Source: a virus. Taken from it: a DNA stretch of 64,000 nt. The stretch spans positions 19,055-83,054 of IMG/VR virus record IMGVR_UViG_3300043403_000051; one strand, written 5' to 3'. A program made the translations under genes and the position numbers. Shown piece by piece: positions 1 through 9,212 of the stretch (the stretch's first letter is position 1; every line of letters begins with the position of its first letter). The notes beneath the pieces were generated by a model. That model worked only from the letters and a program-made list of their open reading frames with translations. It had not been told where the DNA came from and did no database searches.

Positions 1-14
1 TTAACGGGGCATCT

Positions 15-87
15 GCTTTCTTAGCTCAACGGTGAGAGCAGGACGCTTATATCGTCAAGGTTACAGGTTCGAATCCTGTAGGAAGTA
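15..87 (+). tRNA. tRNA-Ile(UAU)
   Basis: Acceptor GCTTTCT/AGGAAGT, anticodon arm GACG-CTTATAT-CGTC, T arm ACAGG-TTCGAAT-CCTGT; no encoded CCA. Confidence 0.9.
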
Positions 88-92
88 CATAT

Positions 93-166
93 TGAGATGT
101 AGCTCAATTGGTGAGAGCATATGACTGATACTCATAAGGTTGAAGGTTCGACCCCTTTCATCTCAA
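93..166 (+). tRNA. tRNA-Ile(GAU)
   Basis: Acceptor TGAGATG/CATCTCA, anticodon arm TATGA-CTGATAC-TCATA, GGTTCGAC T loop. Confidence 0.92.
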
Positions 167-171
167 CACAC

Positions 172-245
172 GGGGCAATAGTTTAAGCGGCTTAAAACAA
201 TTGATTTGCAATCAGTAGTTCCGATTTCGAGTATCGGTGGCTCCA
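172..245 (+). tRNA. tRNA-Ala(UGC)
   Basis: Anticodon arm ATTGA-TTTGCAA-TCAGT; G3:U70 alanine identity pair in GGGGCAA/TGGCTCC. Confidence 0.9.
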
Positions 246-259
246 CACAAAGAACAACA

Positions 260-739
260 ATGGACAAATATTTTAAAACTGAGACTGGTAAAATAGTTGA
301 TATAATAGAATACACGGCCCAACAAATAAAAGACAATCCCTCTGTTAAGATATACATAGGTGCTGATAGCCAAGTCTACGGCCCTAAGATTAAGTTTATC
401 TTAGCTATTGTATATAGGGTTGGTAATAGGGGTGGGCACTGTATTCATAAGCTTATAAAGACTGAAAGACCACCCAAAGGGATTCCTGATGAAATTCAGG
501 TTAATAACAGGCTTACAGAGGAAGTTTACTTAACTATGGAGCTTGCCCAATATTTTATTGATAATAGTTCTTTTAAACTGGAGGCAGTTGAATTTGACTT
601 TAATCAAGAGGAAAGTTACCTAAGTAACAAGCTAATAAACTTATCAACAGGTTGGGCTAAAGGACTTGGTTTTAAAGCACGTACTAAGCCTGATGAACTG
701 ATAGCTTGCAAGTATGCAGACCATCTCGTAAGATTTTAA
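260..739 (+). CDS. RNase H-like YkuK/DUF458 family protein
   Basis: IYIGADSQ motif, RLxEEV, C-terminal YADHL; start moved to ATG 260 because the longer ORF overlaps tRNA-Ala. Confidence 0.75.
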   Translation: MDKYFKTETGKIVDIIEYTAQQIKDNPSVKIYIGADSQVYGPKIKFILAIVYRVGNRGGHCIHKLIKTERPPKGIPDEIQVNNRLTEEVYLTMELAQYFIDNSSFKLEAVEFDFNQEESYLSNKLINLSTGWAKGLGFKARTKPDELIACKYADHLVRF

Positions 740-741
740 TT

Positions 742-1338
742 ATGATTGTAATATATAAAATAGAAAATCCAAAAGGTAAAGTTTATATTGGTCAAACCAA
801 AAGACTTATTCAAAGAAAGTCTGCTTACAAAAATTTAAGATGTAAGAAACAAAGAAAACTTTATAGTTCTTTAAATAAATATGGTTGGGAAAATCATACA
901 CTTTGTGTTTTACATGAGTTACCTGATGATATAGAGCAAAGAGTAGTAGATGATTATGAAATTTTTTACTATGAACAATTTATTGCTTGTGGATTTGAAA
1001 TGCTAAACCTAAAAACATGCGGAAACGGCGGAGGATTACACTCGGAGGAAACAAAGAGATTGATAGGAAAACAAAGTAAGGAAAGATTTAAAGCTAAATC
1101 TGGAATGAAAATAGCTCAGGTAAATCTTAATTTGGAAATTATTAATTTTTGGGAGAACGGTTATACACTACAACAAGAAAGAAAGTATTACAATATATCA
1201 AGAAAATGCAGAGAATTTCCAAGTATAGCTTATGGATATTTTTGGTTATACGAAAAAGATTTACATAAATTAACGCAAATAGACAAGCTTAAAATAAAAA
1301 AAGACGGGAATGGTGTTTATAGTTATTTCAAAATGTAA
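742..1338 (+). CDS. Free-standing GIY-YIG homing endonuclease with NUMOD3-like motif
   Basis: N-terminal VIYKI...KVYIGQT, conserved R, E and N residues, HSEETKRLIG motif; likely start ATG 742. Confidence 0.85.
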   Translation: MIVIYKIENPKGKVYIGQTKRLIQRKSAYKNLRCKKQRKLYSSLNKYGWENHTLCVLHELPDDIEQRVVDDYEIFYYEQFIACGFEMLNLKTCGNGGGLHSEETKRLIGKQSKERFKAKSGMKIAQVNLNLEIINFWENGYTLQQERKYYNISRKCREFPSIAYGYFWLYEKDLHKLTQIDKLKIKKDGNGVYSYFKM

Positions 1339-1377
1339 TAATCTCTGTAGAGTTTAGTAATTCATTAACATTATTTA

Positions 1378-1409
1378 TTTGGTAGATTAAAAAAAGATTT
1401 ATACCTTTG
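1378..1409 (+). promoter_or_regulatory. Bacteroidota-type promoter of tRNA operon A
   Basis: TTTG (1378-1381), 20 nt spacer, TACCTTTG (1402-1409) matches the -33/-7 consensus. Confidence 0.85.
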
Positions 1410-1415
1410 TATCCC

Positions 1416-1493
1416 ATGAAGAATTTCAACACATATTATAGTCTCTCATTGTTATCCAGCCTAACGGGTCGGGAGCTAAAGGTATGGGTATAA
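1416..1493 (+). CDS. Attenuator leader peptide A, MKNFNTYYSLSLLSSLTGRELKVWV (25 aa)
   Basis: ATG 6 nt after the -7 box; ten consecutive Tyr/Ser/Leu codons at 1434-1463; contains GGGAGCT complementary to the terminator 5' arm. Confidence 0.8.
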   Translation: MKNFNTYYSLSLLSSLTGRELKVWV

Positions 1494-1522
1494 TAAAGAT
1501 AAACTCTTAAATCAAAACATAT

Positions 1523-1550
1523 AAAAAAGCTCCCTATTGGGGGCTTTTTT
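1523..1550 (+). terminator. Attenuator terminator A
   Basis: AAAAAAGCTCCC-TATT-GGGGGCTTTTTT hairpin plus U tract, 7 nt before the first tRNA. Confidence 0.9.
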
Positions 1551-1557
1551 AGTTTAT

Positions 1558-1630
1558 GGCTCTATGACGTAATTGGAAACCGTCTTGGCTTTAGAACCCA
1601 AGTTTCCGAGTTCGAGTCTCGGTAGAGCTA
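1558..1630 (+). tRNA. tRNA-Leu(UAG), short variable loop
   Basis: Acceptor GGCTCTA/TAGAGCT, A73, loop TTTAGAA, T arm CCGAG-TTCGAGT-CTCGG; C31-C39 mismatch. Confidence 0.8.
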
Positions 1631-1633
1631 CAT

Positions 1634-1706
1634 GCCTTTGTGATGAAACGGAATACATGTCAGACTTAAAATCTGAATTTTACGGGTTCGACTCCCGTCA
1701 GAGGTA
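1634..1706 (+). tRNA. tRNA-Leu(UAA), short variable loop
   Basis: TCAGA-CTTAAAA-TCTGA; acceptor GCCTTTG/CAGAGGT; A73. Confidence 0.88.
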
Positions 1707-1711
1707 CATTT

Positions 1712-1796
1712 GGAAGCACGTAAAGTTGGCGTACTTATCCGTCTTGAAAACGGTGAAGAGGTAACACTTGTGCAGGTTCGACCCCTGCTGTTTCCG
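1712..1796 (+). tRNA. tRNA-Ser(UGA)
   Basis: CCGT-CTTGAAA-ACGG, long variable arm, G73. Confidence 0.88.
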
Positions 1797-1799
1797 CAT

Positions 1800-1883
1800 A
1801 GAGAGGTGACTGAATGGTAAGGTACTGGTTTGCTAAACCAGGGTCAGATAAAACTGGAGTGGGTTCGATACCCATCCTCTCTG
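1800..1883 (+). tRNA. tRNA-Ser(GCU)
   Basis: CTGGT-TTGCTAA-ACCAG, long variable arm, acceptor AGAGAGG/CCTCTCT, G73. Confidence 0.92.
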
Positions 1884-1885
1884 CT

Positions 1886-1940
1886 AAAGGGTTCCTGTAT
1901 CAGGCAAAATATAACCCCCGTTGTGGTATAGGAATCGTTT
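1886..1940 (+). ncRNA. Small non-tRNA hairpin RNA inside tRNA operon A
   Basis: GGTTCCTGTATCA (1890-1902) pairs with TGGTATAGGAATC (1924-1936) over 13 bp including G-U pairs. Confidence 0.45.
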
Positions 1941-1944
1941 ATTT

Positions 1945-2029
1945 GAGATAGCTGTCGTGATGGAGGAACGGCACTGGTCTGTAAAACCAGCACTATGAAA
2001 CACAGTAGGTTCGAATCCCACCTATCTCA
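1945..2029 (+). tRNA. tRNA-Tyr(GUA)
   Basis: CTGGT-CTGTAAA-ACCAG, extended variable region, acceptor GAGATAG/CTATCTC. Confidence 0.9.
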
Positions 2030-2055
2030 CATTAACAATTAATTTTAATTATTTA

Positions 2056-2087
2056 TTTGGTAGTTAGATAAAAAGATACTACCTTTG
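2056..2087 (+). promoter_or_regulatory. Bacteroidota-type promoter of tRNA operon B
   Basis: TTTG (2056-2059), 20 nt, TACCTTTG (2080-2087); near copy of the promoter at 1378. Confidence 0.85.
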
Positions 2088-2091
2088 CTTT

Positions 2092-2172
2092 ATGAATGTA
2101 ACACGTACACATACGCAACAGTTTTGGTTCCCTACAAGGGCTGGGCTTGGTATGTGTGATAATAGAGGATAA
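2092..2172 (+). CDS. Attenuator leader peptide B, MNVTRTHTQQFWFPTRAGLGMCDNRG (26 aa)
   Basis: ATG 4 nt after the -7 box; twelve consecutive Thr/Arg/His/Gln/Phe/Trp/Pro codons at 2101-2136; contains CTGGGCTT complementary to the terminator 5' arm. Confidence 0.8.
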   Translation: MNVTRTHTQQFWFPTRAGLGMCDNRG

Positions 2173-2196
2173 ATTCCCCCAAACACTCACTCATTG

Positions 2197-2234
2197 AAAA
2201 GCCCAGGACATAAAATCCTGGGTTTTTTATTTTT
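2197..2234 (+). terminator. Attenuator terminator B
   Basis: AAAAGCCCAGGA-CATAAAA-TCCTGGGTTTTTT directly before tRNA-Pro. Confidence 0.9.
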
Positions 2235-2237
2235 AAT

Positions 2238-2311
2238 CGGGATGTGGACTAATGGCAAGTCACTTACTTTGGGAGTAAGGCATCATGGAGGTTCGAGTCC
2301 TCTCATCCCGA
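2238..2311 (+). tRNA. tRNA-Pro(UGG)
   Basis: CTTAC-TTTGGGA-GTAAG; acceptor CGGGATG/CATCCCG. Confidence 0.92.
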
Positions 2312-2316
2312 CATTT

Positions 2317-2388
2317 GCCTCGTAAGCATATATGGTGATGCAGCGCACTTGTAATGCGCAGAATAGGTTTCGAGTACCTAACTTGGCT
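2317..2388 (+). tRNA. tRNA-Thr(UGU)
   Basis: GCGCA-CTTGTAA-TGCGC; two acceptor-stem mismatches. Confidence 0.88.
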
Positions 2389-2395
2389 CAGTAAT

Positions 2396-2467
2396 GGAGA
2401 TATAGCTCAGTTGGAAGAGCAACGGATTGAAGCCCCGTGAGCACCAGTTCGACTCTGGTTATCTCCA
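2396..2467 (+). tRNA. tRNA-Phe(GAA)
   Basis: Loop TTGAAGC; acceptor GGAGATA/TATCTCC; canonical D arm. Confidence 0.9.
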
Positions 2468-2474
2468 CATATAT

Positions 2475-2545
2475 TCCCATTTGGCGTAACGGAAGCGTAG
2501 GACTCTTTGAAAGTCTTGGAAATTGTTCGATTCAATTAATGGGAG
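2475..2545 (+). tRNA. tRNA-Gln(UUG)
   Basis: GGACT-CTTTGAA-AGTCT; acceptor TCCCATT/AATGGGA (U1-A72), G73. Confidence 0.9.
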
Positions 2546-2550
2546 CACAC

Positions 2551-2622
2551 GGGTTTATTGATGTAATGGAAGCATGGCAGTTTGTGAAGCTGCTCGTATG
2601 GGTTCGAACCCCATATCTACCC
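2551..2622 (+). tRNA. tRNA-His(GUG)
   Basis: GCAGT-TTGTGAA-GCTGC; G-1:C73 present; two acceptor mismatches. Confidence 0.88.
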
Positions 2623-2627
2623 CTTTT

Positions 2628-2699
2628 ATCCTCTTAGCATAATGGAAGTGCAGCAAGCTACGAACTTGCGTTGTGTGAGTTCGAGTCTCATGGAGGATT
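2628..2699 (+). tRNA. tRNA-Arg(ACG)
   Basis: GCAAG-CTACGAA-CTTGC; acceptor ATCCTCT/GGAGGAT. Confidence 0.9.
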
Positions 2700-2711
2700 C
2701 TTTTTATAACT

Positions 2712-2781
2712 GCGTATGCCTAAAGGAGTAGTAAGCGGTCTCCAAAACCGTGATTTATCAGTTCGAGTCTGGTCATGCGTG
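2712..2781 (+). tRNA. tRNA-Trp(CCA) with reduced D arm
   Basis: GCGGT-CTCCAAA-ACCGT; T arm ATCAG-TTCGAGT-CTGGT; acceptor GCGTATG/CATGCGT; only about 70 nt. Confidence 0.75.
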
Positions 2782-2793
2782 CTTAAATAGTAT

Positions 2794-2842
2794 ACCCAAG
2801 TTAATTATTTGTTAAAAGTAATTGATTTGGGTTATTTTTTTT
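2794..2842 (+). terminator. Terminator closing the tRNA region
   Basis: ACCCAAGTTAATTATTT...AAGTAATTGATTTGGGT hairpin followed by a T run. Confidence 0.7.
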
Positions 2843-2871
2843 GGTAGTGTCATAAATTCTTGTTATTTTTG
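2840..2871 (+). promoter_or_regulatory. Bacteroidota-type promoter for the packaging/head operon
   Basis: TTTG, 20 nt, TATTTTTG. Confidence 0.65.
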
Positions 2872-2886
2872 TATAAATTAATTACT

Positions 2887-3240
2887 GTGAGCAACCAAAT
2901 ACCTTTTATAAAGATTTCAAAGAACACAGACTCTAAAATAGAGATGGTTAAAAAGATTGTTTCTATCTATTGTGTGTTGTCTGATATTAAACTTTCTGAA
3001 ACTGATATTATAGTTGTTTCATATTTCATTCTATATGGAATCAATGAAAAAACTAAAAAATTAATTATTGATAGCAAACTCCTTAATAGTGATAGTATCA
3101 AAAATACAATGTCAAAATTAAGAAAAGCAGGTATAATTAAAAAATCAGAATTCAGGAGAAAAGAAGATTATCTAAATGAAAACTTAAACATACCAATTAA
3201 TAAAGTTGTTGGATTAATGATTAAAATAGATAACTCCTAA
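2887..3240 (+). CDS. Hypothetical protein, possible winged-helix DNA-binding protein
   Basis: Basic ORF with SIKNTMSKLRKAGIIKK; GTG start chosen downstream of the promoter. Confidence 0.5.
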   Translation: MSNQIPFIKISKNTDSKIEMVKKIVSIYCVLSDIKLSETDIIVVSYFILYGINEKTKKLIIDSKLLNSDSIKNTMSKLRKAGIIKKSEFRRKEDYLNENLNIPINKVVGLMIKIDNS

Positions 3241-6536: not shown

Positions 6537-9212
6537 ATGGCATTATATAACGCTGCTGATAATTTTAATTCTTTAGTTATGCCCCCACAAATGGTATCTC
6601 TTTCTGATAAGATGAAGGATGATAGATTGTGGGGTAAAAAATGTATGGATACTCTTGAACAAGTTGCTTATACACAAATTCAAGGAAACTACAAACTTGT
6701 TGAAAACTATGAGATGGTAAAAGGTCAGTTCATACCAACACATTATTTTGGAGATGAAGGTTACCAAAGTATGTTAACCCAACTATCTTCTGAATTAGAA
6801 CTACCAAATTATCTTAGACACTATGATATTATATCACCTGTATTAAATACATTATCTGGAGAATTTCAAAAAAGACCAGACTTATTTAGAATTAAGGCAT
6901 GGGATGAGAATAATAAAAATGAGTACTTAACTAAGAAAACAGAACTTATAAAAAACTTTATTTCATCTATCATAGAGAAGCAAGTAAACGATAAATTAAT
7001 TGAGCAAGGTATTGATACCAATCAACAATTTCAGAGCCAAGAAGAGGCTGACAAGTACGAAGAATTCAAGAATACCATACGTACTGCACTCACTCCTCCT
7101 GAAATTGAGGAGTATATGACAACTGAGTTTAGAACAGCCGCAGAAATTTGGGCAGAGTGTGTATTAGATATGGATAAGGAAAGATTTTCCTTAGATGAAA
7201 AAGAGAAAGTGGAGTTCGAAGACATGATTATTTCAGATAGATGTTTTCGACATTTTTATATTACAGGTAAAGGTTACGAACAAGAAACATGGAATCCTGT
7301 AAATGTATTCTACCACAAATCTGATGAAACCATATACATCGAAGATGGTGATTATGTGGGTCGTCAATTCTATGGAACTCCCTCGGATATCATTGATAGA
7401 TATGGATTTAGAATGAAAAAGTCTCAAATTGAGATGCTTGAAAAATTTAAAGAAAACAACGATAGACGTTGGAATGAGACACCTGGCTCAGGGTATGTTT
7501 ACCAAAACTACATGTTCCCTTTTAAAGGCTATCAGGGGTGGGATATTGTAAACAAAGGAATGGGGGCAACTGACCCATCATCACCATATGGTATCCCAAA
7601 AATACCTGATAACTTCTTTGATAGCTTTGGTTCAAATATGTATTCAGAGAAACTCGGTATGTTTCTTATTACAGAGGGATATTGGATGTCACAAAAAAAA
7701 ATAGGCTTATACACATACTTTGATGAAGAACTTGGGATAGTAACAAGCACTTTAGTGGATGAAAATGTTATTCTCCCTGATGATATTATAGTTATAGATG
7801 AAATTGAAGAAGGTAGTGAGGAAGAAAATATTAATACAATTGCTTGGACATATGTAAATGAAGTTTGGCAAGGTGTTAAAATAAATGTAAGAAACGCTGA
7901 TGTGACAGATGAGCATAATACGGACGCAATCTATTTAGACTTACAACCGTTGTCTTTTCAATTTAAAGGTGATATAAATCCCTATAATGCTAAACTACCC
8001 GTGTGTGGACAAATATTTAGTGTAAGGAATTCTAAATCTGCATCTCTTGTTGATTTAATGAAACCTTACCAGATTGGTTTTAATGTAGCAATGAATCAAG
8101 TCTATCAAATGATGGAGAAAGAAATTGGTGCATTTATGGTAATGGATGTGAATATGTTTCCTGATAGTAAAGATTGGGGTGGAGAAGATGCTTGGGAGAA
8201 ATGGATGCTTATTGCCAAAAACTTAGGTATGCTTCCCGCAGATACATCACCCGCAAATACAAAAGGGGCAAGTGCCGCAGCAGGTGGTCAATTTCCAAAA
8301 ATTCTTAATCTTGACTTAGCTGCTCAATTTACATCAAGAATAAATTTAGCACAAATCTTTAAAAAGTTTGCTTTAGAGCAAATAGGATTTAACGATTATC
8401 GTCTTGGTAATTTTAATCAAAGTTCTACAGCTACGGGTATTGAAGAAGGGCAACAACGTTCTTTTGCACAAACAGAGAGTTACTTTACAAATTTTTATAA
8501 TTATTTAAAAAGATGTAAAAGAATGAATTTAGATATTGCACAGTTTGTTCAAGCTAAAGATGCTGATATAACTTTTAATTATGTTAAATCAGATTTATCT
8601 ACGGCATATATAAAAATAGCAGGAACCGATTTAATGGGTTCTGACCTACATGTATTTGTTACAAACTCTCAAGAGCATCTAAGACAATTAGAGGCAAGCA
8701 GACAACTTGGTTTACAGAACACAACACAAATGACAGAAGACAACCTTCTTGAACTTATTACATCAAACTCTTTATCATCTATTAAAAAGAAAATTAAAGA
8801 TGGTGTTAAGAAAAGACAAGAGAAAGAGCAACAAGCTTTAGATATGCAGCAACAACAAACAGAAGCAATGAAGGAAGTTGAGACAATGAAACAACAAAAA
8901 GAAGATGAACGTCTTGAAAAGAAACTTGCTTCAGCAGAGTATATTGCACAAATTCAACTTGAAGCTGCAAATGGTGGGGATATCCCTGATTCCATAAATA
9001 TGCAAAATCAGTTAAAGAACCAAGAAATGACAAATAGACAATCTTCTGAATCAACTAAAAATCAGATTGCTAATCAACAACGTATTGATAATAGGCAACT
9101 CAAAGAAAAAGAACTTGCTTTAAAAAATAAGAAAATTGACACAGATTTAGAGATTCAAAATAAAGAACTTGAAAGTGTAAAAATATTAAAAGATAAGACA
9201 GATAAAAAATAA
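6537..9212 (+). CDS. Portal protein (crAss-like)
   Basis: 891 aa after terL; HYDIISP..L.GE and SLVDLMKPYQ..FN motifs; coiled-coil C terminus. Confidence 0.85.
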   Translation: MALYNAADNFNSLVMPPQMVSLSDKMKDDRLWGKKCMDTLEQVAYTQIQGNYKLVENYEMVKGQFIPTHYFGDEGYQSMLTQLSSELELPNYLRHYDIISPVLNTLSGEFQKRPDLFRIKAWDENNKNEYLTKKTELIKNFISSIIEKQVNDKLIEQGIDTNQQFQSQEEADKYEEFKNTIRTALTPPEIEEYMTTEFRTAAEIWAECVLDMDKERFSLDEKEKVEFEDMIISDRCFRHFYITGKGYEQETWNPVNVFYHKSDETIYIEDGDYVGRQFYGTPSDIIDRYGFRMKKSQIEMLEKFKENNDRRWNETPGSGYVYQNYMFPFKGYQGWDIVNKGMGATDPSSPYGIPKIPDNFFDSFGSNMYSEKLGMFLITEGYWMSQKKIGLYTYFDEELGIVTSTLVDENVILPDDIIVIDEIEEGSEEENINTIAWTYVNEVWQGVKINVRNADVTDEHNTDAIYLDLQPLSFQFKGDINPYNAKLPVCGQIFSVRNSKSASLVDLMKPYQIGFNVAMNQVYQMMEKEIGAFMVMDVNMFPDSKDWGGEDAWEKWMLIAKNLGMLPADTSPANTKGASAAAGGQFPKILNLDLAAQFTSRINLAQIFKKFALEQIGFNDYRLGNFNQSSTATGIEEGQQRSFAQTESYFTNFYNYLKRCKRMNLDIAQFVQAKDADITFNYVKSDLSTAYIKIAGTDLMGSDLHVFVTNSQEHLRQLEASRQLGLQNTTQMTEDNLLELITSNSLSSIKKKIKDGVKKRQEKEQQALDMQQQQTEAMKEVETMKQQKEDERLEKKLASAEYIAQIQLEAANGGDIPDSINMQNQLKNQEMTNRQSSESTKNQIANQQRIDNRQLKEKELALKNKKIDTDLEIQNKELESVKILKDKTDKK

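Follow-up and report, generated by a model that had tools for sequence, protein, structure and literature searches.

We analysed a window of 64,000 nucleotides (nt) of viral DNA, bases 19055-83054 of the 83,054-base-pair (bp) virus record IMGVR_UViG_3300043403_000051 (32% G+C), referred to as locus G000 when it is compared with its relatives. Near the start of this window lies a unit that we call cassette B, in which a short open reading frame (ORF) and an intrinsic terminator precede seven transfer RNA (tRNA) genes, all on the plus strand: tRNA-Pro(tgg) at 2238-2312, tRNA-Thr(tgt) at 2317-2389, tRNA-Phe(gaa) at 2396-2468, tRNA-Gln(ttg) at 2475-2546, tRNA-His(gtg) at 2552-2623, tRNA-Arg(acg) at 2628-2700, and tRNA-Trp(cca) at 2710-2782. 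All seven were called by ARAGORN and matched the Rfam tRNA model, tRNA-Trp weakly (25 bits). The ORF (2092-2172) has 26 codons and a stop, from ATG at 2092 to TAA at 2170-2172, and encodes MNVTRTHTQQFWFPTRAGLGMCDNRG. Ahead of it, at 2056-2087, is a putative promoter composed of TTTGGTAG, 16 bases, and TACCTTTG, a motif that we take to match the Bacteroidota-type -33/-7 consensus. The pattern TTTGG-N17-22-TANNTTTG occurs seven times in the window against 0.96 expected, a count reached by none of 100 shuffles, and the extended motif recurs at 1378-1409, ahead of the neighboring cassette A, and at 2840-2871, ahead of the gene that follows. The -7 element of cassette B ends 4 nt ahead of the ATG, and the messenger RNA is therefore probably leaderless or nearly so. 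The unit closes with a terminator-like long hairpin of 17 pairs followed by a T run (2794-2842), which overlaps the next promoter.

Codons 4-15 of the ORF form an unbroken block of 12 codons (2101-2136), which reads ACA CGT ACA CAT ACG CAA CAG TTT TGG TTC CCT ACA (T R T H T Q Q F W F P T). A preliminary description of this DNA had given these letters, and they hold letter for letter and in frame with the ATG at 2092. With four Thr, two Gln, and two Phe codons and one each for Arg (CGT), His, Trp, and Pro, the block covers 7/7 of the downstream tRNAs. Its Arg codon is CGT, as described earlier, and the AGG (2137-2139) and AGA (2164-2166) codons lie outside it. In the 58 ORFs with 100 amino acids or more, 22% of codons belong to the seven-member set (Arg counted as CGN only), and the 12-codon run is the longest of its kind in all six frames of the 83,054-bp genome, where the runner-up has 9 codons; the chance of such a run from this background is 0.22^12 = 1.4e-8. 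For these reasons a chance origin of the block is excluded. The related idea that the ORF as a whole is a chance reading frame in the spacer between promoter and terminator, with no regulatory meaning, draws on how common short ORFs are in AT-rich sequence (1300-2900 is overlapped by 36 ORFs of 20 amino acids or more). Yet the longest class run of the genome sits at exactly this site, and the same design occurs three times in this genome and in 13 other loci, which already contradicts this idea and leaves it with almost no probability.

The RNA downstream of the block can adopt mutually exclusive pairings. Taking the block as region 1, region 2 (2140-2159) is a candidate antiterminator 5' arm that starts 3 nt past the block, inside the leader ORF, and comprises CTGGGCTT (2141-2148) and ATGTGTGA (2152-2159). 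Region 3 (2187-2208) comprises TCACTCAT (2187-2194) and the terminator 5' arm, including AAGCCCAGGA (2199-2208), and can pair with region 2 or with region 4. The intrinsic terminator (2195-2234) has a 14-pair stem with a 7-nt loop (2195-2229) and then the T tract TTTTTTATTTTT; at -19.0 kcal/mol it is present in both the minimum-energy and the centroid fold, and it ends 4 nt ahead of the first tRNA. The pairings proposed in the preliminary description are all there: TACACATAC (2106-2114) pairs with GTATGTGTG (2150-2158) through eight Watson-Crick pairs and one G-U pair; CTGGGCTT is the exact complement of AAGCCCAG (2199-2206) at 8/8 positions; and the extension of the latter duplex, ATGTGTGA with TCACTCAT, is paired at 7/8 positions.

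Computed folds are consistent with a switch between these states. The antiterminator duplex with its own terminator arm reaches -15.8 kcal/mol. When the RNA ends at the terminator loop and its 5' part is masked, as by a stalled ribosome, folding gives the antiterminator as the state of lowest energy (-25.6 kcal/mol). In the full RNA the terminator state (-28.5 kcal/mol) is better by just 2.9 kcal/mol, and with a ribosome placed at the stop codon the minimum-energy fold combines the 1:2 pairing with the terminator.

Cassette B is one of three leader-plus-tRNA units in this genome, which jointly cover all 20 amino acids, each leader sampling its own set. Cassette A (1378-2030, plus strand) has its promoter at 1378-1409, an ORF at 1416-1493 with the block YYSLSLLSSL (1434-1463; two codons per tRNA), an antiterminator arm at 1470-1478 able to pair with the terminator arm, and a terminator at 1526-1550, followed by genes for tRNA-Leu(tag), tRNA-Leu(taa), tRNA-Ser(tga), tRNA-Ser(gct), and tRNA-Tyr(gta), identified with ARAGORN and Rfam. 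No run of Leu/Ser/Tyr-class codons elsewhere in the six frames of the genome is as long as its 10-codon block (runner-up 8). The type-II tRNA-Ser(tga) at 1712-1795, with the anticodon loop CTTGAAA, completes this five-tRNA set; it was missed by ARAGORN at default settings and found at a lower threshold, and Rfam gives it a weak, sub-threshold tRNA-Sec match (33 bits). The third unit carries tRNAs for Lys, Cys, Val, Arg(tct), Asn, Met, Gly, Glu, Asp, Ile(tat), Ile(gat), and Ala, the last three of which, Ile(tat), Ile(gat), and Ala(tgc), were called by ARAGORN on the plus strand at 15-246 of the window. Its promoter, 34-codon leader containing VIDNIRNAEGCKKA, and terminator lie 1.3-1.5 kb ahead of the window (genome 17513-17732). 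Seven inputs had been called unusually broad for an attenuator, and this was an understatement, since the leader of this sister unit upstream of cassette B samples 10/11 of its own categories.

We compared cassette B with relatives to ask how far its parts travel together. The region has a counterpart in one sequenced phage, Lbo-JY46 (locus L001): among phage records, blastn matched 18, of which only Lbo-JY46 extends beyond the tRNA genes, and tblastn with two flanking proteins found six records and one record, with only Lbo-JY46 close. The closing hairpin of the unit is kept there at about 6793-6840. Viral contigs gave no match to a single protein, two DNA patterns, or a protein alignment. 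Using the gene for an RNase-H-like protein (PF04308) as an anchor, we retrieved 16 metagenome loci. L009 was excluded as a near-duplicate of L010 (one exact 60-nt probe, and the same tRNA map at an offset), and L007, L011, and L016 were excluded because the leader was not in the recovered part of the contig. The final set comprises 31 leaders from 14 loci (G000, Lbo-JY46, and 12 metagenome contigs), of three types: ten K leaders (units running from Lys to Ala), twelve L leaders (Leu/Ser/Tyr), and nine P leaders (Pro to Trp, as in cassette B). Lowering the ARAGORN threshold gained true tRNAs, and false ones on the minus strand were removed; Rfam together with a reading of anticodon loops supplied Phe (L002, L012), Trp (L010), and Ser(tga) (L003, L010). 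The gene at L002 5948-6018 is ambiguous, called Lys(ttt) by ARAGORN yet standing at the Gln position.

Across this set, block content follows tRNA content. An equivalent ORF is present at 31/31 leader positions examined in the 14 loci, and each of the 31 leaders has an unbroken block of 8-17 codons drawn from its own unit's set only; together the blocks cover 205/208 unit categories. The cassette B ORF is kept in relatives with synonymous changes and a 3-nt insertion or deletion, for example TTC to TTT and CCT to CCC in Lbo-JY46. The match extends to codon boxes: each of the twelve L leaders samples five boxes (Tyr, two of Ser, and two of Leu), and ATA and ATY occur together in each of the ten K leaders. 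Arg in or beside the P-type blocks is CGN in 9/9 leaders, with tRNA-Arg(ACG) downstream, against a genome background of 30% CGN among Arg codons; in the K-type blocks it is AGR in 10/10, with tRNA-Arg(UCU) downstream.

The location of tRNA-Cys provides a natural exchange between units. In four loci (this genome, L001, L003, and L004) tRNA-Cys is in the K unit, and Cys codons are found in the K blocks and in none of the P blocks. In five loci (L002, L008, L010, L012, and L014) it is in the P unit, and there all five P blocks contain CPQCP and the K leaders are without any Cys. On a maximum-likelihood tree of the RNase-H-like protein, a single gene, this placement cannot be explained by fewer than two changes, and a single change suffices in 0% of 200 bootstrap trees. 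The sensor of seven tRNAs proposed in the preliminary description is thus supported, as far as anatomy and comparison can support it, by own-set blocks in 9/9 P-type leaders with Arg as CGN throughout, by the gain of Cys codons in the five loci with tRNA-Cys in the P unit, and by antiterminator arms that co-vary with terminators.

This correspondence bears on the notion that the translated leader is a general element for translation coupling or processing, without codon specificity, which might protect the transcript by ribosomes or set the timing of expression. An ORF placed right after the promoter, with a near-leaderless start, would suit such a role, as would the distance of 0-35 nt from stop codon to arm, a spread that indicates that the geometry is not rigid. 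However, this notion leaves unexplained why 31 leaders sample the amino acids and codon boxes of their own units, and why Cys and the Arg boxes track the tRNAs, and we regard it as improbable.

The terminators and arms are conserved in the same way. Behind every one of the 31 leaders, 19-53 nt past the stop codon, stands a terminator of -13 to -24 kcal/mol, and in all 31 the segment that best pairs with the terminator 5' arm starts 0-10 nt past the block. The arm falls within codons rich in Gly, and their third positions co-vary with the terminator, giving arm pairs such as CTGGGCTT/AAGCCCAG in this genome, AGGGCTAAC/GTTAGCCCT in L004, and AAGGCTGC/GCAGCCTT in L014. Because a MAFFT alignment of the nine P-type leaders leaves the terminator arms out of register, we used the energies of own and swapped duplexes: duplexes with the own partner average -13.5 kcal/mol, against -8.7 (standard deviation 0.45) for permuted partners, a mean reached by 0/20,000 permutations overall and matched by 0/20,000 derangements within each leader type, although the 31 leaders are mutually related and such p-values and permutation counts overstate their independence, which weakens the case for attenuation to that extent. 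The mean for their own shuffled arms is beaten by 28/31 leaders.

These observations also weigh on the suggestion that the small ORFs encode functional micro-peptides and that the match to tRNAs is secondary. Cys-rich motifs do recur (CxxC...CCxC in some P leaders, and the ...DGGCGCN tail of this genome's K leader), and a GGCGC-type micro-ORF is free-standing in relatives. Against this, the order of residues within blocks is shuffled between relatives and their composition kept, which fits a codon sensor and not a folded peptide, and changes in the arm within the ORF are matched by changes in the terminator. A strain variant found in DNA contigs from three other (freshwater) metagenomes points the same way. 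It has 19 substitutions in 1340-2800, of which 13 lie between block A and its terminator; both blocks and the stretch 2092-2236 have none. Three changes in the leader A tail (1471, 1482, and 1487) alter the amino acid (frame read by hand), and the block is unchanged. Taken together, this makes the micro-peptide suggestion very improbable. G1471A in this variant falls on the first base of the cassette A antiterminator arm, and within 1471-1534 three bases are changed and one T is added in and before the cassette A terminator 5' arm.

We consider it likely that cassette B works as a ribosome-mediated (leader-peptide) attenuator of transcription, placing a seven-gene phage tRNA operon under feedback control. 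The ORF, the match of its block to the tRNAs, the promoter motif, the terminator, the competing complementarities, and the conservation and co-variation of all of these in relatives are observed features. Transcription would start at the Bacteroidota-type promoter, a few bases before the ATG, and a ribosome would translate the 26-codon leader while the polymerase heads for the terminator at 2195-2234. When all 12 block codons are decoded fast, the ribosome would pass over region 2 to the stop codon; with region 2 covered, or paired again with the block once the ribosome has passed, the terminator would form from regions 3 and 4 and transcription would stop before tRNA-Pro. A shortage of just one of the seven cognate aminoacyl-tRNAs would stall the ribosome in the block, masking region 1 and leaving region 2 free to pair with the terminator 5' arm once that is made, such that the terminator is blocked and the polymerase enters the seven tRNA genes. 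Stalling presumably promotes read-through and not the reverse. Because the products are the very molecules whose shortage would be sensed, the circuit would be a negative-feedback controller of supply, a homeostat. For the genome as a whole, we give even weight for and against a wider reading, in which the phage lineage has a complete tRNA supply system that measures itself: the three attenuators probe all 20 amino acids to the level of the codon box, telling apart Arg CGN from AGR, Ile ATA from ATY, the two Ser boxes, and the two Leu boxes, each switching on only the block of tRNAs that are in short supply.

The usual signal in such a circuit would be tRNA abundance. The same hardware could instead report amino-acid supply or charging, acting as a starvation sensor with no real feedback through tRNA abundance, in which case phage tRNA output would rise whenever translation slows in general. 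Classical attenuators do read aminoacyl-tRNA, sequence alone does not separate the amount of a tRNA from its charging, and amino acids, not only codon boxes, are sampled in the blocks. However, extra tRNA does not relieve amino-acid starvation, and so this logic would bring no benefit; moreover, the blocks split the boxes of a single amino acid (Arg CGN/AGR, Ile ATA/ATY, Ser, and Leu), which is a property of isoacceptors. We therefore see starvation sensing as unlikely, and retain tRNA abundance as the probable signal.

Several further observations weigh against attenuation, or against parts of it. The cassette B leader ORF, whose translation is presumed, has no Shine-Dalgarno sequence. Ribosome-free RNA extending to the terminator loop also has the antiterminator as its minimum-energy fold, so the "off" default would rest on folding kinetics. 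The preliminary description had also proposed a 1:2 "protector" hairpin; this hairpin is present in the minimum-energy fold of cassette B (-16.7 kcal/mol), but is no stronger than in synonymous-codon shuffles (z +0.54), and the effect over the 31 leaders is modest (mean z -0.66, with 12/31 below -1). The sole Pro codon of cassette B lies 7 nt before the arm, where a stalled ribosome should partly cover the arm, making Pro sensing doubtful; decoding of this CCT by tRNA-Pro(UGG) would in addition need four-way wobble. In L014 the Arg codon is parted from the block by an Asn codon. The run length of the K-type block is by itself unexceptional, the genome having 29 runs of 12 codons or more. Because a leader and its tRNAs are physically linked, the co-variation of Cys could reflect exchange of whole modules and may amount to few independent events. 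Finally, the Lbo-JY46 record, with 21 Rfam tRNA matches, is without tRNA-Tyr and tRNA-Ser(GCU), and yet its leader retains TAT TAT and AGT.

Synonymous codon choice within blocks is a weak signal that we did not use as evidence: of 109 codon boxes found two or more times in a block, 70 are written with at least two codons, where 50.7 are expected from G000 usage, and, running counter to such diversity, Tyr is TAT TAT in 12/12 leaders.

The tRNA region also contains other genes and insertions. The RNase-H-like PF04308 protein gene (window 260-736) lies inside it and is kept in the arrays of all relatives, and an ORF at 742-1335, also inside it, matches the GIY-YIG domain at 22.2 bits, just below the Pfam cut-off of 22.6. 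In Lbo-JY46, a promoter and a 74-codon ORF (L001 5780-6060) occupy the place where the window has tRNA-Ser(gct) and tRNA-Tyr. Homing-endonuclease-like ORFs stand between the attenuator terminator and the first tRNA in L010 (4740-5297 and 6623-6781) and L012 (4590-5012 and 7705-8218); we take them to be of the HNH type from our own reading of the translations. tRNA-like fragments lie at the junctions of these inserts, and in L012 the 3' part of the terminator is duplicated after the insert. ARAGORN places a tRNA with anticodon CTA, of the amber-suppressor type, between the K and L units of L008 (12056) and L014 (5439); none was seen in this window. A conserved Gly/Cys micro-ORF or tail (...DGGCGCN, MKKLYGGGCGCGGKK, MTIIKDGGCGCK, and similar) is joined onto the K leader at its end in this genome (17650-17669 of the genome, ahead of the window) and in L001, and is free-standing just before the leader promoter in relatives (L010 4486-4533, L012 4327-4383, L015 1413-1451, L017 282-347, and L008 at about 7910-7950).

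How phages regulate the tRNA genes that they carry is largely unknown. Cassette B would represent a known kind of regulation applied to a new target, a reading that is supported, with strong support coming from comparison among relatives. If it is true, it would be the first ribosome-mediated attenuation of tRNA genes, opening a textbook mechanism to targets of a new class and raising the inputs per attenuator from the textbook two or three to seven or more. It would also mean that phages gauge the decoding capacity of their host codon by codon; on the wider reading of the three units, a phage so equipped could replace exactly those tRNAs lost, for example to host shut-off or to anticodon-nuclease defenses. 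A compact, programmable sensor of tRNA availability is a possible use. Natural variation (the moves of Cys, the Arg boxes, and the co-varying arms) supplies ready designs for mutants of the leaders.

Searches for known families placed cassette B outside them. The T-box covariance model had no match in window 1-3200 at E values up to 1, and none of the Rfam leader families (Trp, His, Thr, Leu, Phe, and others) reached its gathering threshold in cassette B, where the sole Rfam match to 2092-2236 was a small RNA at chance level (14.9 bits, E 0.58). The cassette A terminator scored 25 bits against Phe_leader, whose gathering score is 55. In the crAss-like phage cr111_1 (NC_055880.1; L018 2868-3010), tRNA-Gln is preceded by a promoter like that of cassette B and then by an ORF of 13 codons, MVKTIREGQSVEG; its hairpin is without a T run and its match to a tRNA set is unclear, and it was not used as evidence.

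Two other forms of control by tRNA invite comparison. T-box RNAs bind uncharged tRNA directly, without translation, and each reads one tRNA. Cassette B resembles them in choosing between terminator and antiterminator by tRNA status, and differs in that it would read seven tRNAs through translation. T-box riboswitches are mentioned also in the literature on attenuation of aminoacyl-tRNA synthetase genes (PMC1262725). According to the same source, classical attenuators precede pheST in γ-proteobacteria and trpS and leuS in Streptomyces (PMC1262725). These control, as cassette B would, a component of the translation apparatus through cognate charged tRNA; in contrast to cassette B, they regulate a protein gene for one amino acid, and tRNA genes are not the target.

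The nearest published case of an inducible array of supernumerary tRNAs is the trn operon of Anabaena PCC 7120, whose promoter has direct repeats and is served by the repressor TrcR (PMC8421152, PMC10272220). It shares with cassette B a horizontally mobile tRNA array kept low and induced under impaired translation, and differs in being controlled at the promoter; term searches of these texts found "attenuat" in neither, "leader" absent from PMC8421152, and "leader peptide" absent from PMC10272220. Literature searches directed at the mechanism, in a collection that lacks most subscription journals, found no published case of leader-peptide attenuation of tRNA genes.

A close likeness is to the multivalent leader-peptide attenuators of enterobacteria, thrL (Thr and Ile) and ilvL of ilvGMEDA (Ile, Val, and Leu), which have two or three inputs. 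Cassette B shares with them a short promoter-proximal ORF, a dense run of regulatory codons, and an intrinsic terminator in front of the genes under control. Its 2:3 and 3:4 hairpins and its candidate 1:2 hairpin exclude one another, as theirs do, and the position of the ribosome would decide among them. It departs from them in a Bacteroidota-type promoter and a near-leaderless start without Shine-Dalgarno sequence. Where such attenuators control amino-acid enzymes with one to three inputs, cassette B would control tRNA genes with seven, and its sister units would read five codon boxes and 10-11 categories.

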